A DNA stretch of 64,000 bases, from assembly GCA_022711495.1 (NCBI GenBank), contig JAKLEX010000001.1:23058-87057 (forward strand), given 5' to 3'. The position numbers and the translations under genes are program-made. Under the pieces are notes generated by a model. The model was given only the letters and a program-made list of their open reading frames with translations, had not been told where the DNA came from and did no database searches. The stretch's first letter is position 1; every line of letters begins with the position of its first letter. This document shows positions 7,322 to 54,243 of this stretch, piece by piece. Origin of the DNA: Patescibacteria group bacterium. GTDB lineage: Bacteria; Patescibacteriota; Minisyncoccia; Phycocordibacterales; JAACPR01.

Positions 7322-7372
7322 CCCCTTTCAGGGCGGTGATTCTTATGCTATCACCAGGGGCTTTTTTAGTCA
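7322..7372. terminator. Rho-independent terminator hairpin, readable on both strands; 3' of the SIMPL gene
   Basis: aaaaagcccctttcagggcggtgattcttatgctatcaccaggggctttttt is a GC-rich stem flanked by A/T runs. Confidence 0.55.
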
Positions 7373-7384
7373 AGCGATGTAACG

Positions 7385-8173
7385 CTACTTTATTTCGTAA
7401 TCAACGTGAACTGTATAAGTTATTTTCTGTTCTCCAACCGGGATATCTGGAGAGGCTACTGATTTGGCGCCCATTCCGCCCGCTTCTTCATAGCCGTAAT
7501 CATACATCGGGTAACTGCCGGAATCTTCATAGAAGCCGACAACTCTAACCAGTCTGACACCGAGACTTTCTGCCAATTCTTTTGCCTTTGCTTGAGCATC
7601 TTCAATCGCCAACTTTTTAGCTTGTTCTTCCAAAGCATCGCGATCGTCAGAAGTGAAACTTAGTCCACTGACATTAGAAATTCCCAGTGATCCTATACCG
7701 GACAAAAGGTCTCCGGCCTTAGAGGTGTCTCGGACTTTTACCGTAACGGTTTGGCTGACTTCATAGCCGATGATCTCTTCATATCCGCCCGGACAATAAT
7801 AATCGCTACAAACTTCGGAAATCCAACGAGTTTTCGGATAGATGTTATAGCTTGAAGTCTCCAAGTCCTTTTCCTCAACTCCGTTATCCTTCAAATATTT
7901 TAAAGCTTTGTTAGTTTTTTCGGAAGCCGCCGACTGAGCTAACTCAACATTTTCTGACGCTTCGGTAATAGAAAAGTTGAAAGTCGCTATATCCGGAACA
8001 GCCACAACCTCGCCTTCTCCCGCGATAGAAATGCTTGAATAAAAATCATCATCAAAAGAATCAATGGTGATGCTGACTAGATATACCGATAAAAGTATGG
8101 CCACAATCAAAACCGCTACAACCACCCACCCAAAAGCATACTGCCAATTCTCAAATATTTTCTTAAGATTCAT
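7385..8173 (-). CDS. SIMPL/DUF541 family periplasmic protein (YggE-like), membrane-anchored
   Basis: It has an N-terminal TM segment. The domain's length and organisation match SIMPL-domain proteins (e.g. KALKYLKDNGVEEKDLETSSYNIYP ... EQAKKLAIEDAQAKAKELAESLGV). Confidence 0.65.
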   Translation of the reverse strand: MNLKKIFENWQYAFGWVVVAVLIVAILLSVYLVSITIDSFDDDFYSSISIAGEGEVVAVPDIATFNFSITEASENVELAQSAASEKTNKALKYLKDNGVEEKDLETSSYNIYPKTRWISEVCSDYYCPGGYEEIIGYEVSQTVTVKVRDTSKAGDLLSGIGSLGISNVSGLSFTSDDRDALEEQAKKLAIEDAQAKAKELAESLGVRLVRVVGFYEDSGSYPMYDYGYEEAGGMGAKSVASPDIPVGEQKITYTVHVDYEIK

Positions 8174-10022: not shown

Positions 10023-10133
10023 ATTTTTAAATTAAATTATTAATAAAGTTTCAGCAAAGGTAAGTGAGTATTATAGTAACATAGATTCCGAAGACGAGAA
10101 AAATAAAAACCCGCCGATCGCTTTCGCGCCCCC

Positions 10134-10166
10134 TCCTTTGTTTCATGGGCGACTATCGGGAATCGG
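10134..10166. repeat. Distal copy of a 33-bp perfect direct repeat that duplicates the tRNA-His 3' end (18 nt) plus 15 nt of downstream flank
   Basis: ctcctttgtttcatgggcgactatcgggaatcg is identical to 10278-10310, 144 bp away. Confidence 0.9.
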
Positions 10167-10277
10167 TCACAGGTTCGGCTACGCCGACCCGCGACCCCGA
10201 CTCACTCGCTACGCTCGCTCCGTCTTTCGATTCCGAAGTCTTCCTGAAACAAAAGTCGCCGACTCGTTCCGAGCCGG

Positions 10278-10310
10278 CTCCTTTGTTTCATGGGCGACTA
10301 TCGGGAATCG
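10278..10310. repeat. Proximal copy of the 33-bp direct repeat; it overlaps the genuine 3' end of tRNA-His
   Basis: Identical 33-mer. It includes the T-arm 3' half and the acceptor 3' strand of the tRNA-His gene on the minus strand. Confidence 0.9.
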
Positions 10311-10365
10311 AACCCGAATCGAGAGTTCCACAAACTCTTGTGTTAACCGTTACACCATAGTCGCC
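10293..10365 (-). tRNA. tRNA-His (anticodon GTG) with a genomically encoded G-1
   Basis: I folded this cloverleaf by hand. The acceptor is GCGACTA/TAGTCGC, and an extra 5' G pairs with C73. D-stem GTGT/ACAC. Anticodon stem AGAGT/ACTCT with loop TTGTGGA. T-arm TCGGG-TTCGATT-CCCGA. No CCA is encoded. Confidence 0.85.
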
Positions 10366-10465
10366 ATTTTCAACCACACTTCCCCGCGCGACGCATTTGA
10401 AATTTTTTGCCGCTCGTCACTCGGGAACTCTTCTTTTATACCAGACAAATGGCTGGCAAGTCTAG

Positions 10466-11473
10466 CTAAAATAGATTAAAAAGTTTGGCGGCAAAAACAG
10501 CGTAGAGCAAAACATATAGCACTCCTTCTTGGATATGAATCCGGCGCGAGATGCCAGAAATGACAAACAATATGGTGGCAATAACTAGAACGGGCAGACC
10601 CAAAGTGAGAGTTTTTTCGTCAATCGGAAGCGAACTGATCAATCCGGGTATGCCGATGACAAATAGAGCGTTAAAAATATTGGAACCAAAGATATTACCG
10701 ATGGACAGTTCCGATTTGTGGGCCATGGCGGCTCTAGTCGAGACCGCTAGTTCGGGTAGAGACGTTCCGATGGCCACTCCGGTAATAGCAATAACGCCAG
10801 TGGCGATATTTAGAAGGCCGGATAATTCAACAACAGAGATAATAAGATATCTTGATCCGACAATCAGGCCCACGAAACCAGTGATTAACAGGACAAAATC
10901 TTTAGCTGATAATTTTGGCCTTTTGGCCTTTAACTCGGCGATTTCATGCGGCTCGTCAGCCTCGTCTGGTTTGTAGATAACGGAAAAGCCAAGATAGATC
11001 AAGAACGTCAGTATCAAAAAGACAGCCTCAAAAAAAGTTATGACTCCGTCCCAGGCGGTAATCAAAAAGATTGAACCCGTAATGGCGATCGTCGGTAATT
11101 CCAAATCAATCAAGTCTTTTGTCACAACTAATCTGCGCGCCAGAATGGCCGAAAAACCAACGATAACTAAAATATTAAAGATGTTGGAACCAACGACATT
11201 GGCTACCACGATTTCCGGAGCTTGATGCAAGACGGCGACAATTGACGACGCTAGTTCTGGCAAAGAAGTCCCGAAACCGATGATGGTTACGCCGATTACG
11301 AATGGAGAAAGGCCAACGGCCAAGCCGATCCTTTCAGCGCTAACTAATGTCCAATCGGATCCCTTGACCAGAATGCTCAACGAAAGAACAAAAATAACAA
11401 CCCACAAAAATATCATGCGATTAATTTTAACACTGAATTTATCCGCGACAAAATGACAAGCGCGGAATTGCAA
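10466..11473 (-). CDS. Na+/Ca2+ exchanger (CaCA/YrbG) family membrane transporter
   Basis: Two alpha-repeat signatures are present: GTSLPELASSIVA and GTSLPELAVSTRAA. It has a polytopic membrane profile. The true start may be the internal Met near 11416. Confidence 0.8.
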   Translation of the reverse strand: MQFRACHFVADKFSVKINRMIFLWVVIFVLSLSILVKGSDWTLVSAERIGLAVGLSPFVIGVTIIGFGTSLPELASSIVAVLHQAPEIVVANVVGSNIFNILVIVGFSAILARRLVVTKDLIDLELPTIAITGSIFLITAWDGVITFFEAVFLILTFLIYLGFSVIYKPDEADEPHEIAELKAKRPKLSAKDFVLLITGFVGLIVGSRYLIISVVELSGLLNIATGVIAITGVAIGTSLPELAVSTRAAMAHKSELSIGNIFGSNIFNALFVIGIPGLISSLPIDEKTLTLGLPVLVIATILFVISGISRRIHIQEGVLYVLLYAVFAAKLFNLF

Positions 11474-17404: not shown

Positions 17405-17491
17405 GGAGAGATGGCAGAGTGGTTGAATGCACCGGTCTTGAAAACCGGAACATCCGAAAGGGTGTCGTGAGTTCGAATCTCACTCTCTCCG
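17405..17491 (+). tRNA. tRNA-Ser (anticodon TGA), class II
   Basis: Hand-folded: acceptor GGAGAGA/TCTCTCC, anticodon stem ACCGG/CCGGA with loop TCTTGAAAA (anticodon TGA), long variable arm, T-arm GTGAG-TTCGAAT-CTCAC, discriminator G. Confidence 0.8.
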
Positions 17492-17675
17492 CAACGACTT
17501 GTGAAGACGGGCAAAGCTCGTCTGAACAAGGCGTCTGCGAAAATAGCGAGGGTGAGATGAGAAAGACGGACTGAGCGAAAATGAGCGAAGCGAATTTTTG
17601 CGAAGGAGTCGGGGTCGCGAACACTTAGATTTTTACGAGCCGAGTTTAGCGAGGCGAAGTAAAAAGCTTAGTGAT

Positions 17676-17703
17676 TCGTGACCGAATCTCACTCTCTCCG
17701 CAA
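17676..17703. repeat. Direct repeat of the tRNA-Ser 3' end, 190-209 bp downstream of the tRNA
   Basis: cgaatctcactctctccgcaa at 17683-17703 is identical to 17474-17494 (21 bp exact), with an imperfect extension (tcgtga-ccgaatctc vs tcgtgagttcgaatctc). It overlaps the stop codon of the HD-domain gene. Confidence 0.85.
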
Positions 17704-39070: not shown

Positions 39071-40174
39071 TTAGCGGTTCATCGGCATAACCAAGTACAA
39101 AAAGCTCTTGTCACTAGTTCCCTGAATAATCATCGGCTTTTCCGCGCCACTGAATTTCAGAGTCAGACCGTCTGATTTTATTGAATTAAAACAATCATTG
39201 ATATATCTGCTGTTAAAACTCAATTTCAGGCTGTCTCCGTTAATCTGGCACTTAATATTATTTTTGGTTTCACCAACTTCACTAGAATTTGATTCTATCT
39301 GAAATATCTCGTCTTTCGGAGAAATAGTGAAAGTAACCTGATTGAATTTATCGGCAAAAACACTAGAAACTTTCAAACACTGTTGCAAATCGTCTTTCAA
39401 GACATGAACTTCCGTTTTCACTTCCTTGGGAATAATCTGGCGGTAGTCCGGAAAAACACCGTCTATAACGCGTGAAATTATGGTCATTTCGTGCGTTTCC
39501 ACGATAATCTTGTCTTGCTCAAAACAAACCTCTATTTCTTCGTCCAAGTCCTCAAGAAGACGAACCATTTCCACGGTATTCTTATAAGGAATTAGGATGT
39601 TCTCAAAAGTATCAACATTTTTGACTAAAATTCGGCTTTCGGCCAATCTAAACGAGTCAGTGCCAACGAAAACCAAATCCCCATCGTCATGATAGACATA
39701 AACGCTGGACAATTCCGGCTTAATACTTGAAGTGGCGGTGCTGTACCAGACCGAATTTAAGCCTTTAACCAAATCCGAGGAGCTAATTTTGAATAATTTG
39801 TCGGATTTCTTATCGGAAATAACTGGAAAATCATCAACTGATTGGGTGTTTATAATCGTGTCGGTAGATTCGCTAGTCACATGTAGCTTGGAATTGTTGG
39901 CTTCCAGTTTGATGACTGAATCTCGCTTAGGCAAATTTGTCAGAAAAGAATTTAAAATAGCCGCCGGGACTAAAACTTTGCCAGTTCCACTGCCTTTCAC
40001 CTTAGAGACGATTTTCAGACTAATATCCAGATTGGTTGAATTGATTGTCAGATCCGTGCCGTCAAAATCAAACATCAAACAAGACAAAGCCGGCAAGGTT
40101 GAACCTTTGGTGGCAATTTTTTCGGCTTTACTGACGATCCTTGTTAGTCTTTCTTTATTAATCTCTATTTTCAT
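39071..40174 (-). CDS. dnaN: DNA polymerase III beta sliding clamp
   Basis: 367 aa with a three-domain beta-clamp pattern. It follows dnaA. Confidence 0.9.
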   Translation of the reverse strand: MKIEINKERLTRIVSKAEKIATKGSTLPALSCLMFDFDGTDLTINSTNLDISLKIVSKVKGSGTGKVLVPAAILNSFLTNLPKRDSVIKLEANNSKLHVTSESTDTIINTQSVDDFPVISDKKSDKLFKISSSDLVKGLNSVWYSTATSSIKPELSSVYVYHDDGDLVFVGTDSFRLAESRILVKNVDTFENILIPYKNTVEMVRLLEDLDEEIEVCFEQDKIIVETHEMTIISRVIDGVFPDYRQIIPKEVKTEVHVLKDDLQQCLKVSSVFADKFNQVTFTISPKDEIFQIESNSSEVGETKNNIKCQINGDSLKLSFNSRYINDCFNSIKSDGLTLKFSGAEKPMIIQGTSDKSFLYLVMPMNR

Positions 40175-40199
40175 TTTATATAAAATTATTTTTTATTAT

Positions 40200-40345
40200 T
40201 AATCCTGTGGATTTGTGTATAAGTCCGGCAGAGCTTTAAATATCTCGGTTAAATTGAAATCTTTTTTCAGACAAACTGTGAAATAAAAATGGATAACGCA
40301 TTTTTATGTGAATAACTTTTTGTCTTGTTAATTCTTATCCACATT
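40200..40345. promoter_or_regulatory. Predicted oriC: a cluster of DnaA-box motifs in the AT-rich dnaA-dnaN spacer
   Basis: A perfect TTATCCACA lies at 40335-40343. Near-matches are TGTGAATAA (40307-40315), TGTGTATAA (40215-40223), TGTGGATTT (40207-40215) and TGGATAACG (40291-40299). The flanks are AT-rich. Confidence 0.6.
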
Positions 40346-40411
40346 TTCCTGAAACTTTTCAGAAGCTTTTTAACAAAGAACGCAAACCTTTCCCACAGCT
40401 TTTCCGCAAAT

Positions 40412-41761
40412 TTATAACATCGACCGGATTTGCGTTAGCTGCTGTGAGAGAGAGTTGTCGGTTTTAAGATCCCCTTTAATCTTTTCGCAAGAATGAATGA
40501 CCGTGGTGTGATCTCGGCCGCCCAATTTTTCACCAATGGTCGGATATGAAATGCTAAAGTCTTCTCGCAAGATATACATTACTATCTGACGAGGTCTAAC
40601 GACTTCTTTTCGTCGAGTTTTATCGCAGATGCTCTTTTCTTCTATATTGAAGAAGTCGGAGACGATCTTTATCAATTCGTTAACCGAGACCATTTTCTTT
40701 GGTTTGGCGCTATTTTTGATTAAATCCTTAATCTCATTGAAAGACAGGGCCTTTCCTTTCAGTTGAGTCTGACAAATGATTGAATTTACCGCCCCTTCAA
40801 GCTCTCTAATGCTTCCCTCAACGGCTTTGGCAATGTAGTCAAAGGTTTCCTTATCCAAGCGAATATTGTTCTTTTCAGCCTTAGATTTGAGGATGGCGAC
40901 CCGGGATTCATGGTCGGGAGCGGTAATGTCAACCATCATACCCTGATTAAAGCGGGATTTTAGCCTCTCTTCCAGGCCAGGGATAAAATTTGGGTGTTTA
41001 TCCGAAGAAAAGATGATTTGTTTATTGTTGTCATACAGAGTGTTGAACAAGTGGAACAGTTCTTCTTGCGTTTTTTCCTTGCCGGACAAAAACTGAATGT
41101 CGTCCATGATCAAGACATCATATTTTCTGTATTTGTCCTTGAAAAGGTTTACTTTGTTTGTTTGGACGGCGCCGATGTATTCAATAGCGAATTTTTCCGA
41201 GGTCAGATAGTAAATTCGTTTGTCGGGGTTTTGCGTTTTTATGGTATTCCCTACCGCTTGAAGCAAGTGAGTCTTTCCGTTTCCGGTGTTTCCATAAATG
41301 AACAACGGGTTGTAAACAATTCCCGGTTGTTTGATGACAGCTTGCGAAGCGGCGTGAGCTAACTCATTGAACGGACCGATGATAAAATTTTCAAAGGTAT
41401 ATCGCGGATTTAAATTATCTTCTTTGTTGATGTAAAAATCGGCCAAAGGAAGTTCATTGACTTGCGTTTTTGGTTTGACGATGACATTTTTCTTTACTTT
41501 GTCGGTCTTAGAAACGATAAACTCAAGAGATCGGACCTCGTCGGAGATATCCCGCAGAGTTTTTAGGATGTCTTTGTGAAATTTGCTGTTCAACCAGTCC
41601 TTTACGAAGCTGTTGGGTACGCCGATATGGACAACGCCGTCGTCAATTTTAGTAATAAACGTATCTTTAAACCAAGTATTGAAATTCGCTTTAGAAACCT
41701 GATTTTCTAAAATATTCAGAGCGTCTTCCCAGATGTTTTTGTGTTCAAAGATTCCCGACAT
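40412..41761 (-). CDS. dnaA: Chromosomal replication initiator protein DnaA
   Basis: The AAA+ Walker A is GNTGNGKTHLLQAVGN. The DnaA signature includes the basic loop GRDHTTVIHSCEKI in domain IV. Confidence 0.95.
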   Translation of the reverse strand: MSGIFEHKNIWEDALNILENQVSKANFNTWFKDTFITKIDDGVVHIGVPNSFVKDWLNSKFHKDILKTLRDISDEVRSLEFIVSKTDKVKKNVIVKPKTQVNELPLADFYINKEDNLNPRYTFENFIIGPFNELAHAASQAVIKQPGIVYNPLFIYGNTGNGKTHLLQAVGNTIKTQNPDKRIYYLTSEKFAIEYIGAVQTNKVNLFKDKYRKYDVLIMDDIQFLSGKEKTQEELFHLFNTLYDNNKQIIFSSDKHPNFIPGLEERLKSRFNQGMMVDITAPDHESRVAILKSKAEKNNIRLDKETFDYIAKAVEGSIRELEGAVNSIICQTQLKGKALSFNEIKDLIKNSAKPKKMVSVNELIKIVSDFFNIEEKSICDKTRRKEVVRPRQIVMYILREDFSISYPTIGEKLGGRDHTTVIHSCEKIKGDLKTDNSLSQQLTQIRSML

Positions 41762-41870
41762 TGCTTAGATTTAAAATGTTGCTCCATTATATACCCGAAA
41801 GCAAGATGGGGAACTTGCTCAAAATAATTAATTATGTTAAAAACATGTTAATAACCTGTTAATTATTTTT

Positions 41871-42005
41871 ATGTCAATTACATATCAACCGAAGAAAAGA
41901 AAGCGATCAAAGACCCATGGCTTTTTAGTGCGTAGCCGCTCTAAAGGTGGCCGAAGAGTTCTCAAAAGCCGAAGACAAAAGGGCCGAAAAAGAATCTCAG
42001 TTTAA
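41871..42005 (+). CDS. rpmH: 50S ribosomal protein L34
   Basis: [44 protein letters not shown] is canonical L34 at 44 aa. It is not in the ORF track because it is below the length cutoff. Confidence 0.9.
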
Positions 42006-42322
42006 TGCTTCTCTCAAAAAATAGAATATCCGCCGGAGACCTTCAGGAAATATTTAAGAGTGTCAGCAACTCTGTCAGTTCCAAATTCTTTTATCTCAAA
42101 AAAAGATTGAACAATTTGAATTATTCCAGATTTGCGGTGATCATCCCCCAGAAGATTTCTAAGTTGTCAGTGGCCCGGCACCGAAACAAGAGAAAAGTTA
42201 TGAACCTACTCAAAAAAATCGGCACTACTGGTAATTATGATTACGTTTTAACTTTGAAAAAGAGGGTCGACGATGTCGTGACCGGAGAATTGGAGGCCGA
42301 CTTGGTTAAAATTTTAATTTAG
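42005..42322 (+). CDS. rnpA: Ribonuclease P protein component
   Basis: It has a 4-nt ATGA overlap with rpmH. It is basic, at 105 aa. The central RNR-like region is ARHRNKRK. This is the classic rpmH-rnpA-yidC context. Confidence 0.8.
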   Translation: MLLSKNRISAGDLQEIFKSVSNSVSSKFFYLKKRLNNLNYSRFAVIIPQKISKLSVARHRNKRKVMNLLKKIGTTGNYDYVLTLKKRVDDVVTGELEADLVKILI

Positions 42323-42339
42323 GATATCATTTCATTAAT

Positions 42340-43101
42340 ATGAAAGCGTTGTTTGTTAGTCTTGTTGTTCGACCATTTTATAATGCTTTGATTTTGTTAA
42401 TGGATTTTGTCACCAGCGATATCGGCATTGCGTTGGTAATTTTAACTTTAGTTTTTCGTTTTATTCTCTTCCCTCTTTATCGAAGTCAGATTCGCACGCA
42501 AATAAAAATGGGACAGGTTCAAGAACCGCTCAAAAAAATTCAAGAGAAGTATAAAGACGATCGCGAAACAATGGGGCGGGAGATGTTGAAACTCTATCGG
42601 CAAAACAAAATTAATCCATTTTCTGGAATTCTGATAATGATTATTCAGTTGCCATTGCTTATCGGTTTTTATTATGTTTTTTCCAGATCAGGTCTGCCGA
42701 ATATAAATGAAAATCTTTTATACTCATTCGTTTCGTGGCCGGAAAACATTAACACCATGTTTCTTGGTTTAATTGATATGACCGGTAAAAGTCTGCCGTT
42801 GGCGATTATCGTCGGCATAACGCACTTTTTCCAAATGCGCCTAATGCTACCGAAGAAAAAGGAGGCTCAAGAGGGCGATAAACCCGGGGGTTCTAAAGAA
42901 AATATGATGAGGAGCATGCAGACGCAGATGAGCTATTTTATGCCTGGAATGATGGCGGTGATGGCCTATACGCTTGGTTCAATGGTGGGCTTGTATTTCT
43001 TTGTCGGTGGACTTATTTCCATCGGACAGGAATTTTATATAAGAGAAAACATCCGCAAACCGGAAGAAGAAAGATTGAAAAAAGAGAAAAACGGCAACTA
43101 A
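42340..43101 (+). CDS. yidC: Membrane protein insertase YidC (short Oxa1-like form)
   Basis: 253 aa with 5 TM helices. The conserved YidC core is present (IALVILTLVFRFILFPL; NPFSGILIMIIQLPLLIGFYYVF) and there is a basic C-terminal tail. Confidence 0.85.
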   Translation: MKALFVSLVVRPFYNALILLMDFVTSDIGIALVILTLVFRFILFPLYRSQIRTQIKMGQVQEPLKKIQEKYKDDRETMGREMLKLYRQNKINPFSGILIMIIQLPLLIGFYYVFSRSGLPNINENLLYSFVSWPENINTMFLGLIDMTGKSLPLAIIVGITHFFQMRLMLPKKKEAQEGDKPGGSKENMMRSMQTQMSYFMPGMMAVMAYTLGSMVGLYFFVGGLISIGQEFYIRENIRKPEEERLKKEKNGN

Positions 43102-43102
43102 A

Positions 43103-44392
43103 CTATTCCGTGATTTCAGCGTTCGGTCGGATGTCTAAACTCCAAAGTGACAAATCTTTTTTATTTTGAAAGACCAAATATTCCTCCTGTTCGTTTAGGG
43201 AAATGTTTGAGATGTCAAAAATTAATGGAAAGCCGGTGAACATCGTGGCGGTGTCTTCTTTCAGATTGATTTCAAAAATACTGTCGTTAAACGAGACGGC
43301 ACCCAAATACCAATCGTCCGGATAATCCGCCGAAGCTAAATTCGTCGGAACGGCGCAATAAACAATGTCAGTATTTTTTTTGCCCCAAACACATTTGTCG
43401 GCCAAAGTGCGAACGGTGAGTGGCTTATCCTCGTTAGTGCTTAGATCATAAATGCCGGTGGAAATCGTATCGCCGTTATATTCCGAATATAAAATTTTTG
43501 TTAAGTCCGGGCTAGTTTTGGTTGCCAATCCGTATTTGTCATCAAGAAGTTTTGAGAGGTTTCCGTTTGTTGGATTCATGGCAAAAGCGAATCCTTCTGA
43601 AAGCCACGAAGGTTTTGTCGTCAAAATAATTGTGTTGTTAATCCACTCCGCCAACCATTCGGTTATAGGATATTCAAAAACTAAGGTTTGAGCTTGCGGA
43701 GCCGCGCCATCAAAAGTGTAACCGCGGTTATCTTTTATGAAGAAGAAGGAATCTTTGGTTGGAGATTTGATCAAAGTCGAGACGTTTTTTGGTAGAAATG
43801 ACCCATTCAAAGCTGAATAAATGCTTTCGTCTTCGGCAATGTTAGGATCGGCTGGGGCGTCTTCAATCTTGCCGACGAAGGTCTCAATATCATTATTATC
43901 GTCCAGATATCTCAATATCACGCCGTCTCCGGAGTTAAAGAACATTGCTTCTTGGACTTTAGGTATGGTCGTGTTTGTAACTCGACTGACAGTTAGGCGA
44001 TTCTCGGTGGTTTCATAGACATTTCCAGAGGCCCTATGAACGAAGCGATAAACCGTTTCAGTTTGATTCCTTTGAGACTCGGGAATTGTCGTGTCGTTCG
44101 GATTTATTTTTCTCTCAAAAGTCGTGAAGCCGGAAACTAATGTTGGAGTGATTTGTCGCAATTTTGGAATCTGACCGATATTTTCCAATTCCGTCGAGGT
44201 TGTTTCTTCGGCGGCAGTGGTGTCGGCGCTTGTGCCGGATGTTGGGAAAGAGAATTCGGCGTCTGTTCCGCCCGAAGTTTCACCGCCGGTTGTGCCAGCC
44301 TCTTGTCCGGAGAAGATAATAAGATAGCCGACCGATAGTCCGGCCAAGACGACTACTGTTGCTAATATTATTATGGCTGTTTTGCGTGTCAT
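43103..44392 (-). CDS. Membrane-anchored hypothetical protein, last gene of the T4SS-like module
   Basis: It has an N-terminal TM helix and a Gly/Thr-rich linker. A ~350-aa beta-rich ectodomain follows. No motifs I recognise. Confidence 0.4.
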   Translation of the reverse strand: MTRKTAIIILATVVVLAGLSVGYLIIFSGQEAGTTGGETSGGTDAEFSFPTSGTSADTTAAEETTSTELENIGQIPKLRQITPTLVSGFTTFERKINPNDTTIPESQRNQTETVYRFVHRASGNVYETTENRLTVSRVTNTTIPKVQEAMFFNSGDGVILRYLDDNNDIETFVGKIEDAPADPNIAEDESIYSALNGSFLPKNVSTLIKSPTKDSFFFIKDNRGYTFDGAAPQAQTLVFEYPITEWLAEWINNTIILTTKPSWLSEGFAFAMNPTNGNLSKLLDDKYGLATKTSPDLTKILYSEYNGDTISTGIYDLSTNEDKPLTVRTLADKCVWGKKNTDIVYCAVPTNLASADYPDDWYLGAVSFNDSIFEINLKEDTATMFTGFPLIFDISNISLNEQEEYLVFQNKKDLSLWSLDIRPNAEITE

Positions 44393-44401
44393 GGATTGTC
44401 T

Positions 44402-45235
44402 TTATGGTACGAGTCCTTCCATCTCCAAGACTCTTTGAATGTTTGGCGGAGAGGTTGGATCTGAGTTTTGATTACTGAAAAAATCAATTTGTGATTCCGT
44501 AGCTATTGGTCCACTATCGATCTGATTATTAATTTCTGCCTGTGCGGCCGGACTCAGTGTGGGGGCGGGACCACTGATACTTAACTGTTGGCCCATAAAC
44601 GAGGAGTTTATTTTTGTTTCTGTCGCGTTGCCAGGTTTTTTTAACTCAGATGAAACGTAGGCGGCATCAACTTTATTTGCTGGCTGCGTGTCCGATATAT
44701 CACCCAGACTAGGAGACACAACCCTGGGGCGATTTGCGCCGTCGCCGCTAGCGCCGGAAACGCTATTATCCGCCGTATTTTTTACCCCAATATCCAAATT
44801 CAACAGCGCCGGATTTATCTCGTGCAAAATCAGCCACGATACCAAAGCCAAAATTAGACCGGCGATTGCCGACTCTATTTTTGCCCAGCCTTCTTTTTTG
44901 TCAAAAACTGCATCAGTCGTCATATATTGTATGGCGCCGAGCAGAATAAACAGAACGGCTAAAATAATGGCGATAGCCACGGTCCAATTAAAAAGTTGCT
45001 TTAAGACTGCACTTAAAGATGTCTTTGAGGTACCAGTTCCCTGACCTTGATCAAACAATCCTTTGCCGGATATCGGAACATAGTTTGCCACGGATTGTCC
45101 GGCTTGGGCCAAGCTTTGCTCGCCGGAATTTCTTGTTGCTGTTAAGACATCCGATTGAAAAAGCACGGCGACAAAAATCACCAAGGTGAAAACTATGGCG
45201 GATCCTAATATTATTTTGTTTTGGCGGCTTATCAT
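44402..45235 (-). CDS. Membrane protein with a two-helix hairpin reminiscent of VirB2/TrbC-type pilins, plus a Ser/Pro-rich C-terminal tail
   Basis: It has an N-terminal anchor. Two closely spaced TM helices follow (WTVAIAIILAVLFILLGAIQY; IAGLILALVSWLILHEI), separated by a short loop. Confidence 0.35.
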   Translation of the reverse strand: MISRQNKIILGSAIVFTLVIFVAVLFQSDVLTATRNSGEQSLAQAGQSVANYVPISGKGLFDQGQGTGTSKTSLSAVLKQLFNWTVAIAIILAVLFILLGAIQYMTTDAVFDKKEGWAKIESAIAGLILALVSWLILHEINPALLNLDIGVKNTADNSVSGASGDGANRPRVVSPSLGDISDTQPANKVDAAYVSSELKKPGNATETKINSSFMGQQLSISGPAPTLSPAAQAEINNQIDSGPIATESQIDFFSNQNSDPTSPPNIQRVLEMEGLVP

Positions 45236-46308
45236 ATTGAACTGTTAGCGGAATAAGTTAAAGTCAAGTTGGAAGAAGCGCTTGAATACAAGTTGTTCTT
45301 GTCCAGAATTTTAGCCGAAATGGTGAACTGGCCGGATTCTCCAGAATTACGCCCGAGGATGATTGAATTTGTATTGCCGACGGTTTCAATTCTTGAATTA
45401 TTCAAATACCAGTTATAAGTCAATGATCCCAGATTTCCCAGATTGAAGTAAAGAGGCAAAGCCGTTATCTCAACTTCTTGTCCACTGAGAGTCATGTTCC
45501 CCGTAGCTAGTCTGCTTAATATCAAGCCATTTGTCGGCGCTTTGGCGTAGAGCAGGGTTCTTGATTCGGAATAGCCGATATTTTCAATGGCTTGATTTTG
45601 CAAATTCTGCCCGACGACTTTAGCGGTTACGGTGACGGTGGAAGGATTAGTGAATTCTGTTTTTGGCACAGCAATATAAACATTGCGTCCGGTTCCAGAA
45701 GCCGGTCCGTCCGTCTGACCATTTATTCTCCAGGTGTAGACTATATTTGAGTCATCTATTCTGCGGCCGGCGGAATTCCGGAAATCCGAAATGGCGATGA
45801 ATTTGTGAATTGAACCTGGCACCGGCAGAGCTCGACCTTTATAGAAAGGTGGCGTTGAGGTCAGAGCCTCATCCAATATTGATAATTCGGATGGTGAGAC
45901 TGTGTGCGCCACTTCATACTCACCAGTAGATGTTTTGACTACGGCTTTTATGTTAATGTTTCGGGCGTTTTCACCAACTGTCGTGTTGATACTTTTTAGA
46001 CCAAGACCGCTTGAAATGAATTTTCCGTCAATGTACCAAGAAATCGTGGCTTCATCCACTGGCAGAGAATAACTCTGGATATATATTGAAATGTTGTCGC
46101 CCGGACTTGGGTAGGCGGGGTCGGTGTAGATGGAAATATTTGGAGTTATTTCAGGCAAAGAGTCCAGAAATCCTTCAATATCAGTTAAGTCAACGGTGGT
46201 GTTGTCACCGGCCCCGTTAGCTGGAATAGTTTGAGCAGACACAATTGACGTGCCGAGAACGAGAGAGAAAAATAGCCAAACTATTAGAAATAAGCCTAGT
46301 TTTTTCAT
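45232..46308 (-). CDS. Secreted repetitive beta-rich protein (three related ~90-aa repeats); possible surface or pilus-associated adhesin
   Basis: It has a signal peptide (MKKLGLFLIVWLFFSLVLGTSIVSA). Repeated motifs are ISWYIDGKF / IVYTWRINGQ / LTYNWYLNNSRI. Confidence 0.45.
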   Translation of the reverse strand: MKKLGLFLIVWLFFSLVLGTSIVSAQTIPANGAGDNTTVDLTDIEGFLDSLPEITPNISIYTDPAYPSPGDNISIYIQSYSLPVDEATISWYIDGKFISSGLGLKSINTTVGENARNINIKAVVKTSTGEYEVAHTVSPSELSILDEALTSTPPFYKGRALPVPGSIHKFIAISDFRNSAGRRIDDSNIVYTWRINGQTDGPASGTGRNVYIAVPKTEFTNPSTVTVTAKVVGQNLQNQAIENIGYSESRTLLYAKAPTNGLILSRLATGNMTLSGQEVEITALPLYFNLGNLGSLTYNWYLNNSRIETVGNTNSIILGRNSGESGQFTISAKILDKNNLYSSASSNLTLTYSANSSI

Positions 46309-46381
46309 CAGTATAATTATAGCAAACCGCCTGTTTTTGTTAATTAAAGCGAGCAGGTTTCGGGCGAGGAATTGATGTGCC

Positions 46382-48262
46382 TTAAAATCCCTCCAAATCC
46401 TTCTGAATTTTTCTAATACTGGATTCCTGCAAGTCTTGTTTGCCGGAATTTTTCAATTCCTGCTTGCTTCTCTTGATACTTAAAATTTGGGCCGGATCGG
46501 AAGTGATGATCTGATCTTCAGCGTAGGAGCCGATGACTTTAATGGCCACGTGTTTTAGTCCGGCAAAAAAGATTCCCTCTCCGACGTTGGATTCAAGCAG
46601 CAGATATTTCTCTTCCTCGGTTAAATTGAATGTTCTCTGGACAATATCAATTGATGAAACTGATTGTTTCATCAGCAGTTGCATTGAGGAGTTGCTGATA
46701 ATTGGCACGCCGTATGGAGAATTTAAGAAGTCCTCAACGTCTTGCGTGATTGTTGAAAGCCCCAAGAAATATTTTCGTCCTCTTTTAGCCAAACCAAGCA
46801 AGAACGAAGCGGTGTCTTCGGATTTCATCATCCACCAAGCTTCGTCAATGACCAGCAGTCTCTTTCTCAAATCTTTTCGTATGGCCGTCCAAATGTAGCG
46901 GGTGATGATGTACATGGCGATCGGCTTCAATTCGTCTTCCATGTCGCGCAGAGCGAAGACGATGAAGTTTTTATTGATGTTGACGTTGGTTGGTTTATTC
47001 AAAAATCCCGCCCAAGTTCCTTGAGTGTATTTCGTTAATTTCTGTGCCAAATTTTCCGCTCCTTCCATTCCGGCCAAAACAAGGGCAAAGTCGGACATCA
47101 AAGGTGGCTCAATTTGCGAGAAGTCAGATTCCGGCGTGATATCTTTTAGAGCGTAAGTCTCGGTGATGGCGCGATCAATGATGGCGTCTTCTTCTGGTGT
47201 TAATCCGCCGAACATTAGTCGGAATAAACCGACCAAGTTTATAATGTTTGATCGCAAAACATCAGCTGGTTGTTCGTCCGGCCGCGGAGTCGGAATGTCA
47301 AACGGATTGATGTGGTGATTTGAAGTCAGAGAGATGGTAAAGAAGCGTCCGCCAGCGGCTTCGGCCATGTATTCGTATTCTCTTTCCGGGTCAATGACGA
47401 TGACTTCTATGCCGAACATCAAAGAACGCAGAATTTCCAGTTTGGTGGTATATGATTTTCCGGCACCGGCTTTGGCGAAGGTAACAGAGTTATAGTTTTC
47501 CAATGAGAACCGGTCAAATAGAATCAATCCGGAATTGTGTCGGTTTATTCCGTAAAGAATTCCGCGGTCGGAAGTCAATTCAAATGAGATGAATGGGAAG
47601 ATGCTGGAAAGGGGCTCAGAATTTAATTGCGTGTGAATTCCCAGTAAGTCGGTTCCGACCGGAATAATACTTTTGAAAGCTTCTTCTTGTTGGAAAATGG
47701 CTGGTTTTACATAAACGAGCTTTGATTCTAGAAGTGACTTGAATTCGGATTCAAACTTATCAAGTTCGTCGTCGGTGTTTCCGTATATTGAAATGTATAA
47801 TCCGACGTCAAAAACCTTCTCTGTGGCTTGTTGCAGACTATCTCGCAGAGCCTCCAGGTCGCGGTAAGCCGTGTCTAACTTTGGGTCGCGCACTAGACCT
47901 TTTTCCGTGCGAAGGTTGATTTGACTCTCTACCTCGGCGACTTTCTTTTGGAATTTTCTCAAAATAACAGTGGTGTCTATCGGGTGAACGAAAATTGAAA
48001 CGTCAAAAATTTTATCTAGATTGATTACCGGCGAGAACCAGCTGTCGGCCAAAAAGCGCGGATAAGAAATGACGAAGAAACTGCGAACGACTTTATCACC
48101 CAAATTCAATTCCCTCGGTGAAACTTTCAAGGCTGGTGGGGCGATGATGTCCCGTAATTCCAAAACTCCCGCTTCATATATTTGTTGCGGCAAAAACGAA
48201 GTGATCCTTGGATCCTCTATTTTTGTGTTTTTTTTGCCTTTTAGAAAATCTAAGATTCCCAT
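46382..48262 (-). CDS. VirB4/TrbE/CagE-family T4SS ATPase, C-terminal 626-aa portion (ATPase domain)
   Basis: The Walker A is FAKAGAGKSYTT and the Walker B is LLVIDEAWWMM. The size and order match VirB4 homologues. Confidence 0.8.
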   Translation of the reverse strand: MGILDFLKGKKNTKIEDPRITSFLPQQIYEAGVLELRDIIAPPALKVSPRELNLGDKVVRSFFVISYPRFLADSWFSPVINLDKIFDVSIFVHPIDTTVILRKFQKKVAEVESQINLRTEKGLVRDPKLDTAYRDLEALRDSLQQATEKVFDVGLYISIYGNTDDELDKFESEFKSLLESKLVYVKPAIFQQEEAFKSIIPVGTDLLGIHTQLNSEPLSSIFPFISFELTSDRGILYGINRHNSGLILFDRFSLENYNSVTFAKAGAGKSYTTKLEILRSLMFGIEVIVIDPEREYEYMAEAAGGRFFTISLTSNHHINPFDIPTPRPDEQPADVLRSNIINLVGLFRLMFGGLTPEEDAIIDRAITETYALKDITPESDFSQIEPPLMSDFALVLAGMEGAENLAQKLTKYTQGTWAGFLNKPTNVNINKNFIVFALRDMEDELKPIAMYIITRYIWTAIRKDLRKRLLVIDEAWWMMKSEDTASFLLGLAKRGRKYFLGLSTITQDVEDFLNSPYGVPIISNSSMQLLMKQSVSSIDIVQRTFNLTEEEKYLLLESNVGEGIFFAGLKHVAIKVIGSYAEDQIITSDPAQILSIKRSKQELKNSGKQDLQESSIRKIQKDLEGF

Positions 48263-48264
48263 AA

Positions 48265-48882
48265 TTATTTGTTAGCTTTGAAATCAACATCGCCCGGATT
48301 GAAGATTTTGTAATAAACTTCAATGATTTCTTCCGTGCCAAGATTGGCGGCGCGAACGCCACAACGGCTGATTCCCTGTTTGACGACGGCCACTCTCTGT
48401 TCCAACTGGCTGCGGCTTTCTTCAAAATCGTCAATGCTTTGTTGCTTCTTGTCTTTCTTCGGTCCAAAAAACTTAGCGCCTTTCGTTATATCCAGACTTG
48501 GCGGAGTATAAGGGATGACGATAAAAAAATTTTTAGTCATGATGTTGACGCTCTCGGTGAAACTTTTTATGAAGTTTATGTATTCTCGGCCTTGTATTTT
48601 CAGCAAGTCGTTGGTTTGTTCTTTGACTCGGCCATCAAGCATGGACAAGTAGGGTTTGATATCTAGCTTTCTGGATTGGATGAAAATCTGAATGGTAAAG
48701 TCCAAAGAGTTAAGAAAGTTTTGAAATTGGGAGATGATGGCCTGTTGCTCGTCGGTGGATTTTAGAGCGAAGTTCAAGGAAGAAGTCATCAACAAGGCCC
48801 GCATTGAGCCGTCTTTCAAGATGGCGATACCGTCTCGGACCTCTTTAATTGGGACAAACTCTTGTGATGTCTTAGGGACCAT
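48265..48882 (-). CDS. VirB4-family N-terminal domain encoded as a separate 205-aa ORF
   Basis: VPIKEVRDGIAILKDGSMRALLMTSSLNFALKSTDEQQAII matches the N-terminal consensus of Gram-positive-type VirB4/TrsE proteins. Its stop lies 2 nt before the ATG of the ATPase ORF, in a different frame. Confidence 0.65.
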   Translation of the reverse strand: MVPKTSQEFVPIKEVRDGIAILKDGSMRALLMTSSLNFALKSTDEQQAIISQFQNFLNSLDFTIQIFIQSRKLDIKPYLSMLDGRVKEQTNDLLKIQGREYINFIKSFTESVNIMTKNFFIVIPYTPPSLDITKGAKFFGPKKDKKQQSIDDFEESRSQLEQRVAVVKQGISRCGVRAANLGTEEIIEVYYKIFNPGDVDFKANK

Positions 48883-48897
48883 TCCTGATATTATACA

Positions 48898-49305
48898 CTA
48901 TTTTATATTCTCATTAATATCCAAACTCCAAGAAAGATCTTTCAGTTTGCTGTCGGAAAGCTTCGGTATGGCGATAGGCGATTCGGCGGCGGAAGTTTCT
49001 TCTTTTTTCTCCTCAAGTTTTTTTGGAACTTTTTTCCAGATATATTTCTTATTACCGATGAAATATTTCATGGAGTTTTCAAAAGTCTGAACAAACGGTT
49101 GCCAGCCGTCAAATTTAAAGAAGGCAAACATTAACAATAAAATGACTATCGGCGCACCGACAATTACGGCGATAATCGGCGGAAGGATGTTCCAGACGAT
49201 AAATCCGGTCGCGGCCGCGCCACCGACATACAAAAATTGCTTAGCGGTGAGCGAACCGAATATTTTGTCTTCTACTTCTAGGAATTGTGGAACTTGGTAT
49301 CTCAT
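48898..49305 (-). CDS. PrgI-family (VirB3-like) small T4SS membrane protein
   Basis: MRYQVPQFLEVEDKIFGSLTAKQFLYVGGAAATGFIVW is the hallmark N-terminal motif of the PrgI family (MxYQVPQFIxxEDKIxGPLTxKQF). Two TM helices follow. Confidence 0.8.
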   Translation of the reverse strand: MRYQVPQFLEVEDKIFGSLTAKQFLYVGGAAATGFIVWNILPPIIAVIVGAPIVILLLMFAFFKFDGWQPFVQTFENSMKYFIGNKKYIWKKVPKKLEEKKEETSAAESPIAIPKLSDSKLKDLSWSLDINENIK

Positions 49306-49314
49306 GATCAGTGT

Positions 49315-49965
49315 CTAATCTAGCGGTTCTCGGTACGGATCAACCGGTCGGGATTTTTGAATGTTGGCGTTAGTGTTGGCGACATCGGCACCACCGGTTG
49401 AAATGACATGACTTTCTTTTTGGGCTTCGGTGGTGTTCAATAATTTCTTTTCAAGAATGGTGTCTTTAGGTAAGTCCTCAATAACAACTTCATTATCTAT
49501 TCCGAGAGCTGGCTCAGGCGGTATTTCCGGAACCGGAGCAACAGATTCTCCGCCGGCCGAGATGATTTCTACCTCAGAATTTTCTCGAGAGCTTCCTTGT
49601 TCTACTGCTTTCTTGGCAGCCTCTTCGGCTTTTTTCTCTTCCTCCTCAAGTTCTATGAGTTGTTGCTTGATGTTTTGGAAGATTTCTTCTTCAACCGAAT
49701 TTACTATTTTACTCAAAACCTCCGGACTTAGATTAAGTTCTTGTCTTAATTTATTCATGTAGTCGCGCGGACTGGTTATGCCGAGCATCACGAGAAATGT
49801 TTCAGTTTCCAGAACGCTAGCATCACCGATGACTAAGTTATTTTTTTGAGCGATGATTCGGATTTTTTGTTCCCAATGTGAATTGACAATGGCCTCTTGA
49901 ATAGACTTTGGTAGCGCCCGGAAGCGTTCGATGATTATTTGGTTGTTGGATTCGCCTGATTCCAT
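49315..49965 (-). CDS. Hypothetical acidic protein within the T4SS-like module
   Basis: 216 aa, soluble and Glu-rich in the middle. Unknown function. Confidence 0.4.
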   Translation of the reverse strand: MESGESNNQIIIERFRALPKSIQEAIVNSHWEQKIRIIAQKNNLVIGDASVLETETFLVMLGITSPRDYMNKLRQELNLSPEVLSKIVNSVEEEIFQNIKQQLIELEEEEKKAEEAAKKAVEQGSSRENSEVEIISAGGESVAPVPEIPPEPALGIDNEVVIEDLPKDTILEKKLLNTTEAQKESHVISTGGADVANTNANIQKSRPVDPYREPLD

Positions 49966-49984
49966 AATACGCTATTAAATTATT

Positions 49985-52204: not shown

Positions 52205-52211
52205 AATTCAT

Positions 52212-53246
52212 TTACAAACTAATCGGTCCTCCCTGGAACATATTAAACGCTTTGGTTACAAGCAGATCTACGACGGCCGTCATCAATTCGTCAAACTCAT
52301 CGGCAAAGGCCATTTTATCTTCCGGTATGCCGGAGATTTTAGATATTTTTTCTACCAAAAGTTTTCCGGGCCACTTCAAAGTCCCGTCTTCGTCTCTTGG
52401 GCCGAGAAATCCATTGCCCCAATTTAGTTCCATCTTTAGGGCATTAGCCTTTGCTCCAGCGGCCGCGATCGCATCTCTCTCTATCTCGTATTCAGCGATT
52501 TCTGGGTTATTAATCTGCGACAACTCAAACCAACCTCTCCAGCCGCCCTTTTCAAAATCTCCTTCAATAAACTCCTCCATGTTGTCCGTTATTTCTGACA
52601 ACGTACAGACGTCTTCTTTTTTCCTCATTTGTTGACCGCTTAAAAGATTTAATTTAATACTGATTTGAAACGGTTCACACAATGTAGCCCCGGAAGTTGT
52701 TCCAAATACTAGAGTGTTAACGGCTTTGCCGAACTCTTCGTCGGCCAAATCGGTGAAAAATTGTTGCGGGTTTTCCAAAAATAACGGACTGCCATGGGCG
52801 CCGGTTTGCACCCAGCGAGTTGTATCTACCAATATTGCCTCAATCAAACCGTTCATGATGCAGTTGGCGATTCCGTCGGTTGATGGTGTTCCGATTCTCC
52901 CGGTTTCTTTGTTTCGGAACAGGCCCTCTCTCACCGGGACTTCTAATGACAAGATACTGCTGGCGACCTCTTGTATGGCATTTCCCATAAAATTAACTAT
53001 CCAGCTGCTAACCATGTTTGCTGCTAAGGTAGACAAACATCTCGCGGCGACGGCGCCGACTCCGGTGGCGATGGCCGATGCCGTGTCTGAATCGGAATCT
53101 CTCGTATATGGATCCAAAACTGACCCGCTGCTACTTTGAGCGCTGGCCATTCGCGGGTTGTATATAGAGACAAAACTAAAAACCAAGACGAAAGTGAGAA
53201 TTGGTGACAGGCATCCAGCTATTTTTCTTGAAAAAGTATTAGACAT
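52212..53246 (-). CDS. Secreted or membrane-anchored hypothetical protein of the T4SS-like module
   Basis: 344 aa with an N-terminal hydrophobic segment followed by ASAQSS. No family I recognise. Confidence 0.4.
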   Translation of the reverse strand: MSNTFSRKIAGCLSPILTFVLVFSFVSIYNPRMASAQSSSGSVLDPYTRDSDSDTASAIATGVGAVAARCLSTLAANMVSSWIVNFMGNAIQEVASSILSLEVPVREGLFRNKETGRIGTPSTDGIANCIMNGLIEAILVDTTRWVQTGAHGSPLFLENPQQFFTDLADEEFGKAVNTLVFGTTSGATLCEPFQISIKLNLLSGQQMRKKEDVCTLSEITDNMEEFIEGDFEKGGWRGWFELSQINNPEIAEYEIERDAIAAAGAKANALKMELNWGNGFLGPRDEDGTLKWPGKLLVEKISKISGIPEDKMAFADEFDELMTAVVDLLVTKAFNMFQGGPISL

Positions 53247-53250
53247 TTAC

Positions 53251-54189: not shown

Positions 54190-54243
54190 TTGGCTCTTAT
54201 TATAGCAGATAAACCGCTTTTATTTGCTATAATACTGCTTGAG

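Follow-up and report, generated by a model that had tools for sequence, protein, structure and literature searches.

Among mobile elements that target tRNA genes, some insert at a T-loop (class II) sublocation, as does mycobacteriophage Ms6 (Williams 2002 as cited in PMC1762012), and altering the core of the Ms6 attachment site attP retargets integration among tRNA-Ala genes (PMC1762012). Degenerate tycheposons of Prochlorococcus form arrays of partial tRNAs next to tRNA genes (bioRxiv 10.1101/2020.12.28.424599). The tRNA genes of Patescibacteria host group I introns, which are full-size, self-splicing and situated at anticodon-loop position 35/36 (PMC13011429), and these introns were all that we found in the literature on such elements in Saccharibacteria or the Candidate Phyla Radiation (CPR). 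Here we analyzed 64,000 nucleotides (nt) of a Patescibacteria group bacterium contig (JAKLEX010000001.1, positions 23,058 to 87,057; hereafter, the window), in which the 3' end of a tRNA-His gene recurs exactly a short distance downstream of the gene. We propose that the repeat pair probably bounds one copy of a small (~95–210 nt), protein-less, structured and non-autonomous insertion element. The family to which this copy belongs is uncatalogued and, in this analysis, confined to CPR/Patescibacteria.

The repeated tRNA-His end and the unit between its copies

The tRNA-His(GTG) gene lies on the minus strand at 10292–10365 (ARAGORN and the Rfam tRNA model, 64.4 bits), with an encoded G-1 (10365), discriminator C73 (10293), one further C at 10292 and no CCA; ARAGORN places it at 10292–10364 and Rfam at 10293–10364 (64 bits). 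Its positions 56–73 (18 nt), together with 15 nt of trailer, make up a 33-mer, CGATTCCCGATAGTCGCCCATGAAACAAAGGAG as read on the minus strand, which occurs exactly twice in the window, as a proximal copy at 10278–10310 and a distal copy at 10133–10165, both on the minus strand. These are the copies that the first-pass annotation had described as a perfect 33-bp duplication of the gene end; their spacing needs amending from 144 to 145 nt (start to start), and the interval between them from ~111 to 112 nt. No repeat of this length is expected by chance (100 shuffles, with up to 3 mismatches permitted). Past the 33 exact nucleotides the similarity goes on for 49 nt at 61% (30/49 identical, p = 2e-7), giving 82 nt in total. 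The repeat is real in independent data and no artefact of a single assembly, since the 227-kb Joint Genome Institute (JGI) contig 3300025902 Ga0209202_1000029 is identical in sequence and reads through it, and Logan contigs of two other runs break within the 33-mer (SRR5007150 on both sides, SRR5007146 on the side of the neighboring DsbA gene). A break there is to be expected of a repeat that exceeds Logan's assembly word, which we take to be ~31 bases.

Read along the tRNA strand, the proximal copy runs into a hairpin, T1 (10245–10290, minus strand), with a terminator-like stem at 10258–10278 (9 bp, followed by a T-run) and additional A-tract/T-tract pairing. Within T1, GGCGACT (10254–10260) reproduces the 5' acceptor strand of tRNA-His. 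The first-pass annotation noted GAGCCGGCTC as a palindrome and TGAAACAAA/TTTGTTTCA as a 9-nt inverted repeat; both are present, but as parts of this one terminator hairpin and not as the core of the element. A conserved GGAAGA (10239–10244) precedes the 5' strand of a helix that we call P1, GACTTCGGAATCG (10228–10240, minus strand), which can pair with the opening stretch of the distal copy (tRNA positions 56–68). The conserved scaffold core follows (10166–10227, minus strand; GC 67%), scoring 51.5 bits with the covariance model introduced below. It starts with a joining segment, J1/2 (AAA, 10225–10227), and a short helix, P2a (GAC/GTC, 10222–10224 with 10199–10201), which opens into an internal loop, GGA/GA, and is capped by P2b with a GCGTAGC tip (10204–10217). 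J2/3 (GGG, 10196–10198) then leads to P3a (GTCGCGG/CTGTGAC, 10189–10195 with 10166–10172) and the P3 tip, again with GCGTAGC (10173–10188), all on the minus strand. At the distal junction the CTGTGAC of the scaffold abuts CGATTCCC, so that the distal copy begins at C56 right after the scaffold's GTGAC, and the first 11–13 nt of that copy are the 3' strand of P1.

Beyond the distal copy lies B2 (10084–10132, minus strand), a terminator-like stretch with a damaged stem that is 61% identical to the stretch behind the proximal copy. B2 terminates in the same 10-mer as the proximal unit, CTTCGGAATC (10084–10093), with no scaffold behind it, and is either what is left of an earlier tandem unit or else the ancestral terminator. 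This second CTTCGGAATC, a match to the P1 5' strand, sits 39 nt past the distal repeat, a spacing equal to that of the proximal unit. The promoter region of DsbA comes after B2.

A family of structured units at gene 3' ends

A second family member lies in the window behind tRNA-Ser(TGA) (17405–17492, plus strand). It occupies 17474–17703 on the plus strand (covariance model, 47.1 bits) and consists of a 21-nt direct repeat, CGAATCTCACTCTCTCCGCAA (17474–17494 and 17683–17703), that encloses a hairpin (17498–17530), a P1 5' strand (17546–17561) and a scaffold (17562–17682). A blastn search of the insert against the window returned only a 14-nt match (17606–17619), later recognised as the scaffold core of this Ser copy. 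When a covariance model built from the element core (R1) was run on the window with filters off, it found the His and Ser copies alone.

We found ~20 related copies on ~15 CPR contigs, behind tRNA-His, tRNA-Ser, tRNA-Leu, tRNA-Val and tRNA-Met genes and behind rplK. The loci that we fetched (denoted by L-numbers) include 78 metagenome loci obtained by scanning contigs for the 18-mer of the tRNA-His 3' end, two of which, L100 and L157, have a second copy of the 18-mer at 168 and 198 nt. The motifs common to the window, L100 and L157 begin with (CTAT)CGGGAATCG-AAAGACGGAG and a variable hairpin, and continue with GAGTC(A/G)GGGTCG, another variable hairpin and (C/T)(C/G)TGAC, which is directly followed by CGATTCCCGATAGTCGCCC; a motif search then gave the tRNA-Ser copy in the window, a tRNA-Leu copy in L157 and others. 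Among 127 tRNA genes in the fetched loci, 11 (His five times, Ser, Leu-GAG, Leu-CAG, Val twice and Met) have their own 3' end repeated within 700 nt with family motifs in between, and the sole other case of a repeated end is an ordinary tandem tRNA-Glu pair. At E < 0.01, R1 made 16 matches in the CPR-type loci (575 kb), and eight of these lay outside its seed; no match passed this threshold among loci of other phyla (585 kb; best E = 1.2) or among viral loci (709 kb; best E = 0.17).

The copies associated with rplK, the identity of which was checked, have a scaffold that begins 5–13 nt past the stop codon and is followed by a terminator (L136, 2833–2906, minus strand; L147, 4982–5042, plus strand; L154, 5970–6030, plus strand). 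In L136 the last 13 nt of rplK, TTGACGTGAAATA(A/G), stand on both sides of the scaffold, and GTCGA before the scaffold pairs with TTGAC. Because rplK copies exist, what the targets have in common appears to be a position shortly before a gene's 3' end, and not a tRNA as such. A weaker match (12.9 bits, E = 1.4) at L164 10937–11011 is situated at a non-tRNA site and has the P1 strands CTTGTG/CACAAG.

Along the tRNA strand, the family shares a layout in which the tRNA gene is followed by a short trailer, hairpin T1, which is often a good terminator, and the P1 5' strand, then by (G)AAA and helix P2, composed of a 3-bp base (GNC/GNC), the internal loop GGA/GA and a variable hairpin, and finally by GGG and helix P3, whose base GUCGCGN/NYGUGAC carries a variable tip and leads without a spacer into C56 and the remainder of the copied gene end. 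Across the family the core measures 62–125 nt and has two hairpins. Minimum-energy folds recovered the three-way junction in most of twelve copies, and the folding energy summed over the 12 was −537.8 kcal/mol for the tRNA strand compared to −427.6 kcal/mol for its complement. We examined covariation in a trimmed alignment of 8 copies, in which hairpin tips were replaced by GAAA to obtain comparable columns. Pairing was found in 82% of the cells, compared to 26–37% when partners were slid by 1–3 columns, and changes on both sides were found at 15 of 25 pairs, values that none of 500 shuffles attained. The middle pair of P2a is A-U, C-G or G-C depending on the copy, two P3a pairs are swapped in L093, and one P3a G.U is invariant in all 8 copies. 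The compensatory changes, the invariant G.U and the energy gap to the complement indicate that the fold belongs to one strand, the tRNA strand, as either RNA or single-stranded DNA. The first-pass annotation had offered a decayed scar as one of two options, yet the 63 nt then taken as filler are the conserved, covarying core of this family.

Hairpin tips resembling GCGNAGC are frequent in the family, with similar tips in most members; the His copy of the window has GCGTAGC twice (10178–10184 and 10208–10214) and the Ser copy has GCGAAGC once (17585–17591), and all three tips are flanked by GA..GA. Sequences of the GCGNAGC type are known as an extra-stable DNA mini-hairpin motif (PMC13037366), and these tips are a hint towards a DNA fold rather than proof of one. 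The scaffold core sequence GUCGGGGUCGCG (10196–10201 plus 10189–10195) has a 12-nt identity to Escherichia coli tRNA-Gly(GCC) that spans the anticodon-stem 3' strand, the variable loop and the T-stem 5' strand, and it also resembles tRNA-His and tRNA-Val of CPR loci. The identity to tRNA-Gly suggests that the scaffold may descend from a tRNA.

P1 alone varies with the target gene. Its strands are CTATCGGGAATCG/CGATTCCCGATAG for His, GAGGGTGAGAT/ATCTCACTCTC for Ser, AGAGGACTTG/CAAGTCCTCT for Leu and GATAAGGAC/GTCCCTTATC for Val copies. In L112 the distal copy has GACAG where the tRNA has GATAG (T-to-C), and the P1 5' strand compensates with an A-to-G change. Since the P1 pairing alone changes with the target, we infer that P1 acts as a guide that specifies or stabilises the choice of site. 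In four copies (window His, L100_E2, L093 and L128-Leu), the tRNA 5' acceptor strand is copied upstream of the P1 5' strand, and the element and the displaced gene end can be folded as an acceptor/T-type minihelix with the junction replacing the T loop.

Unoccupied sites were found in relatives of the window genome. In L007 and L086, tRNA-His stands directly before the DsbA promoter region with no insert and no second copy of the gene end; ~60 nt separate tRNA-His from the DsbA region in L007, and L086 has a single terminator there. In L006 this position holds an additional membrane-protein gene. These empty sites at tRNA-His, and the recurrence of the insert core behind tRNA-Ser in the window and in other CPR loci, both run counter to a fixed local duplication, for which the first-pass annotation had expected the same arrangement in relatives and no other copies of the insert. 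A comparison of filled and empty sites was also possible at two other genes: tRNA-Leu(CAG) and tRNA-Val(TAC) are adjacent, 23 nt apart, in L166, and its relative L128 has an element behind each of them. As the L128 DNA past the distal copies is orthologous to the L166 DNA past the tRNAs, the comparison indicates that the insert brought the hairpin, the P1 5' strand, the scaffold and the duplication of the gene end. The duplicated end begins at C56 in every tRNA case, leaving T54–T55 outside the identity, and its right boundary at tRNAs is variable, with 19 to 33 nt exact and then a diverged trailer; duplication lengths measured across the family were 13, 19, 20, 21, 25 and 33 nt. The fixed left and variable right boundaries suggest that the element carries its own version of the gene end, rather than generating a fixed target-site duplication.

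Copies accumulate and decay at some loci. L100 contains two different subtypes in tandem, with E1 next to the tRNA, and a perfect 209-nt direct repeat made of a terminator and element E2 (7372–7580 and 11063–11271) that flanks 3.48 kb of cargo: two inorganic pyrophosphatases, a LigT-like 2H phosphoesterase, MauE/DoxX, DUF305 and one unknown. L157 has 3 copies within 3.4 kb. Copies that are partly decayed include L128-Val, L093 (at its distal end) and L132/L095. At L132 2264–3330, and likewise in L095, a degenerate His-type element has a decayed distal copy of the tRNA end, and a 243-aa acidic open reading frame (ORF), in which no domain was recognisable, lies between a P1-like strand and a subtype-c scaffold. 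At L109 445–800, behind a different tRNA-His gene, there is a remnant of the CPR-type tRNA-His 3' part and then an element that has a 16-nt insertion in its distal copy, and the trailers (AAAAATAACGAGA..GACGCG) are duplicated too.

Scans of 40 ORFs in the window and of the cargo and islands of L100 and L132 found no integrase, transposase or reverse transcriptase, and no recombinase was found beside any family copy examined. A search for large integrase-bearing islands behind these tRNAs found only the L100 cargo island, which lacks a recombinase. Scans against Rfam 15 returned tRNAs only, with nothing on the scaffolds at E up to 10, or up to 1 in further scans. Phage and plasmid records contained no similar element, and exact pattern scans of viral contigs found neither the tRNA-end 19-mer nor the scaffold pattern. 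The 14-mer GAGTCGGGGTCGCG matched more than 120 viral contigs, and we attribute these matches to chance because the covariance model finds no element in them. A 21-mer of the tRNA end plus trailer was absent from metagenome contigs, a collection that evidently does not include the window's own contig. Features of miniature inverted-repeat transposable elements or other non-autonomous DDE elements, namely terminal inverted repeats owned by the element and target-site duplications of fixed length, were not seen; the only long inverted repeat is P1, one arm of which lies inside the duplicated target.

Several known types of structured nucleic acid were tried and rejected. The hammerhead core is not matched by the junction strands, which have a G at the would-be cleavage nucleotide and one extra C in the CUGANGA-like stretch, and no Rfam model of a ribozyme matches. 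Homing by an RNA-guided nuclease of the TnpB type, with a scaffold and a 3' guide, would make the system cut itself, as the rebuilt tRNA gene equals the empty target. For the rplK copies, an L1/L11 autoregulatory leader was rejected given that rplA does not come next and that L136 duplicates the target end as at tRNAs. A group I intron, which would have a length of ~200 nt or more, a P3–P9 core, a match to the Rfam model Intron_gpI and a site within the tRNA that it does not duplicate, is at odds with a core of 62–125 nt with two hairpins, the lack of an Rfam match and the duplicated gene end.

Besides tRNA-His, the surroundings of the His element contain genes for a Na/Ca exchanger, a DsbA-like protein and FolD, among others. 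Relatives L006, L007, L086 and L087 have an intact gene for a PduO-type cob(I)alamin adenosyltransferase between the exchanger gene and tRNA-His; in the window this gene is reduced to its last ~38 nt (10428–10465, minus strand), and the deletion junction shows TTTAG microhomology immediately past the exchanger stop codon. Replication runs co-directionally with the His element and head-on to the Ser element. The replication origin was placed at ~41.8–42.3 kb from dnaN, dnaA and yidC (window 39071–43101) and the cumulative GC skew minimum. Window 43103–55671 is a block of ORFs without Pfam matches around a type IV secretion system-type pilin gene (44402–45235).

Explanations for the arrangement

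We propose that the element would have inserted into the tRNA-His gene at the junction of T-loop positions 55 and 56. Its left end would have supplied tRNA positions 56–73 of its own, a trailer and a terminator, now the proximal copy, so that the tRNA gene stayed intact, and the original 3' end of the tRNA would have been displaced downstream to become the present distal repeat. The right part of the element would be the conserved three-way junction, with P1 as a closing helix formed between an element strand and the displaced gene end. Movement would proceed through a single-stranded intermediate, either single-stranded DNA or RNA, given that the fold is strand-specific and that the units of 93–145 bp are too short for duplex circles; owing to its stiffness, duplex DNA of that length does not circularise readily. 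Catalysis would be provided in trans by a separate factor.

Several observations weigh against this proposal. Mobility is supported by comparative patterns only, with no enzyme, excised form, circle junction or transcript behind it, and the window has no near-identical copies at different loci, the His and Ser copies sharing the conserved core only. The sample is small and biased, most loci having been fetched via the tRNA-His 18-mer. The nearest genomes to the window are Candidatus Saccharibacteria metagenome-assembled genomes, DsbA homologues drop from 100% to 55% identity, and with no closer relative in the databases there is no within-species empty site. In ~7 copies a good T1 terminator separates the tRNA from the scaffold with no recognisable promoter after it, which disfavors an RNA intermediate made from the tRNA promoter. 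Finally, the diverged similarity of the trailers (B1 and B2 in the window; likewise L157 and L128) is explained only loosely, and the proposal does not account for the 10-mer past the distal copy or for the conserved unpaired nucleotides.

The main rival to a mobile element is a cellular non-coding RNA gene, which we consider unlikely. The scaffold and the displaced tRNA end would be transcribed together, form a tRNA-like acceptor/T minihelix with the three-way junction standing in for the T loop and be excised by RNase P and the 3'-end enzymes, possibly serving as a site where processing releases the upstream tRNA from its trailer or as a decoy for tRNA-binding factors, and the unit would have spread among genes by slow recombination, not transposition. 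A strand-specific covarying structure with conserved unpaired nucleotides is what such a gene would have, and the terminator after each scaffold and gene end, the likeness of the core to the variable-loop/T-stem region of tRNAs and the upstream copy of the 5' acceptor strand in the four copies named above, which completes an acceptor stem with a 3' tail, all fit it as well. Its distribution is harder to reconcile with a cellular role: ~6 of the 78 tRNA-His loci carry one (L093, L100, L109, L112, L157 and the degenerate L132/L095), relatives of the window genome lack the element, and a genome may have several copies, placed behind genes with no relation to one another, rplK among them. The tandem arrays, in which subtypes differ, and the decay seen in L128-Val, L132 and the distal end of L093 point the same way, there is no visible promoter, and a terminator stands just upstream in many copies.

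The attL/attR footprint of a tRNA-targeting element, as the first-pass annotation had read the repeat, holds up as far as insertion at a tRNA gene is concerned, whereas a classical integrase-made pair is not demonstrated. In its most developed form, to which we assign a low probability, the copies would be miniature, integrase-less derivatives of T-loop-class islands, mobilised in trans by a tyrosine integrase whose gene lies elsewhere, with the scaffold as an attP arm carrying protein-binding sites. A direct repeat of a tRNA 3' end from the T loop is the trace of a class II integrase, and elements that enter protein genes commonly bring a replacement 3' end, as e14 does in icd. The retargeting of Ms6 by a change of its attP core (PMC1762012) and the tandem accretion and partial tRNAs without integrases of tycheposon islands (bioRxiv 10.1101/2020.12.28.424599) offer further precedents. 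Of the features of an integrase-type pair, the repeated tRNA 3' end and the unoccupied relatives are present, but neither the window nor the surroundings of any copy contain an integrase, and viral, phage and plasmid collections contain no autonomous relative. The identity omits T54–T55, so the crossover region is not the whole T loop; hairpins free in sequence and length that nonetheless keep their pairing, with an invariant G.U, indicate a nucleic-acid fold and not protein sites. The right half-site is wholly different between targets and always matched by a complementary strand borne by the element, which integrase att sites do not need, and the units fall below the size required of a double-stranded circle. 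A local tandem duplication of the 145-bp unit, by slippage or unequal crossing-over and with later divergence of one copy, would yield the head-to-tail order, the 145-nt period and the similarity that extends past the exact core to 82 nt. We regard it as very improbable, as the match falls from 33/33 through 30/49 to a remaining 63 nt that have no significant similarity to tRNA positions 1–55 and are homologous to sequences behind other tRNA genes and rplK elsewhere. Least credible of all is an assembly artefact, a false graph loop created by a 33-mer shared between strains or loci; short-word assemblies do break precisely at the repeat, but the JGI contig spans it, and the loop sequence is a genuine family member with the same architecture on many independent contigs. 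The earlier interpretation is partly supported: of the two options that it offered, the evidence favors a small non-autonomous tRNA-associated element, which is neither a scar nor proven to depend on an integrase.

A broader possibility, which we put forward tentatively and hold to be rather less likely than the main proposal, is a new class of mobile element without a protein gene, in which a folded single strand (RNA or single-stranded DNA) would choose a site at a gene's 3' end by base pairing and carry a spare end that lets the host gene survive. The insertion points observed are at T-loop position 55/56 in tRNA genes and, in rplK, within its last codons. Such an element might be self-catalytic or served by a housekeeping enzyme, and its ancestor may have been a tRNA. 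In CPR/Patescibacteria, genomes are tiny and recognised mobile elements are few, and a protein-less colonist of tRNA genes and other gene ends that does no harm would, if true, be a new route of genome change in a very large group. If P1 truly directs insertion, it would be a natural and very compact case of nucleic-acid-guided site choice, of interest for programmable insertion. The elements also create short exact repeats, at which assemblies break next to tRNA genes and which can be confused with att scars. With the R1 covariance model, a census of the family and a co-occurrence search for a helper enzyme become directly testable.

Comparison with known systems

Compared with the Patescibacteria group I introns, the family occurs in the same phylum and likewise has tRNA genes that host structured inserts, but the introns leave the gene end unduplicated. 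Class II elements such as Ms6 resemble the family in outline, with insertion in the 3' part of a tRNA gene, a block of identity that runs from the T loop past the 3' end, a replacement 3' end given by the element and a displaced end that stays as the distal direct repeat. Unlike in those elements, no integrase was found here, the unit measures 145 bp, and the identity starts from C56, not from the T-stem or T54. Also distinctive of the family is a scaffold that is folded, conserved and provided with a strand complementary to the target, and one scaffold serves five tRNA types and a protein gene.

Tycheposon remnants share with this family the repeated partial tRNAs, tandem accretion in which newer units lie closest to the tRNA, and cargo that lacks an integrase (compare L100). 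They are, however, kilobase remains of integrase-bearing elements, whereas the smallest complete units here are ~95–210 nt long and have a conserved structured core.

Elements of the insertion sequence (IS) family IS200/IS605, and their non-autonomous derivatives, the palindrome-associated transposable elements (PATEs), have strand-specific folded single-stranded ends and a guide, borne by the element, that pairs with flanking DNA, as is also seen here, and PATEs are tiny, lack proteins and are moved in trans. IS200/IS605 elements insert on the 3' side of a fixed tetra- or pentanucleotide, do not duplicate the target and have similar hairpins at both ends. In the present family the duplicated part of the target measures 13–33 nt, the scaffold folds into a three-way junction, the sequences of T1 and P3 are unrelated, and neither TnpA nor TnpB is found nearby. 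Bridge (seek) RNAs of IS110/IS1111 and the exon-binding guides of group I/II introns resemble the family in that a programmable stretch pairs beside the insertion point while the rest is constant. They differ from it in that no recombinase or reverse-transcriptase gene was found here, the scaffold is far below the size of any intron and has no Rfam match, and pairing involves one side of the site only. P1 would be analogous to the guide/target pairing of IS200/IS605 or to the exon-binding sites of introns.

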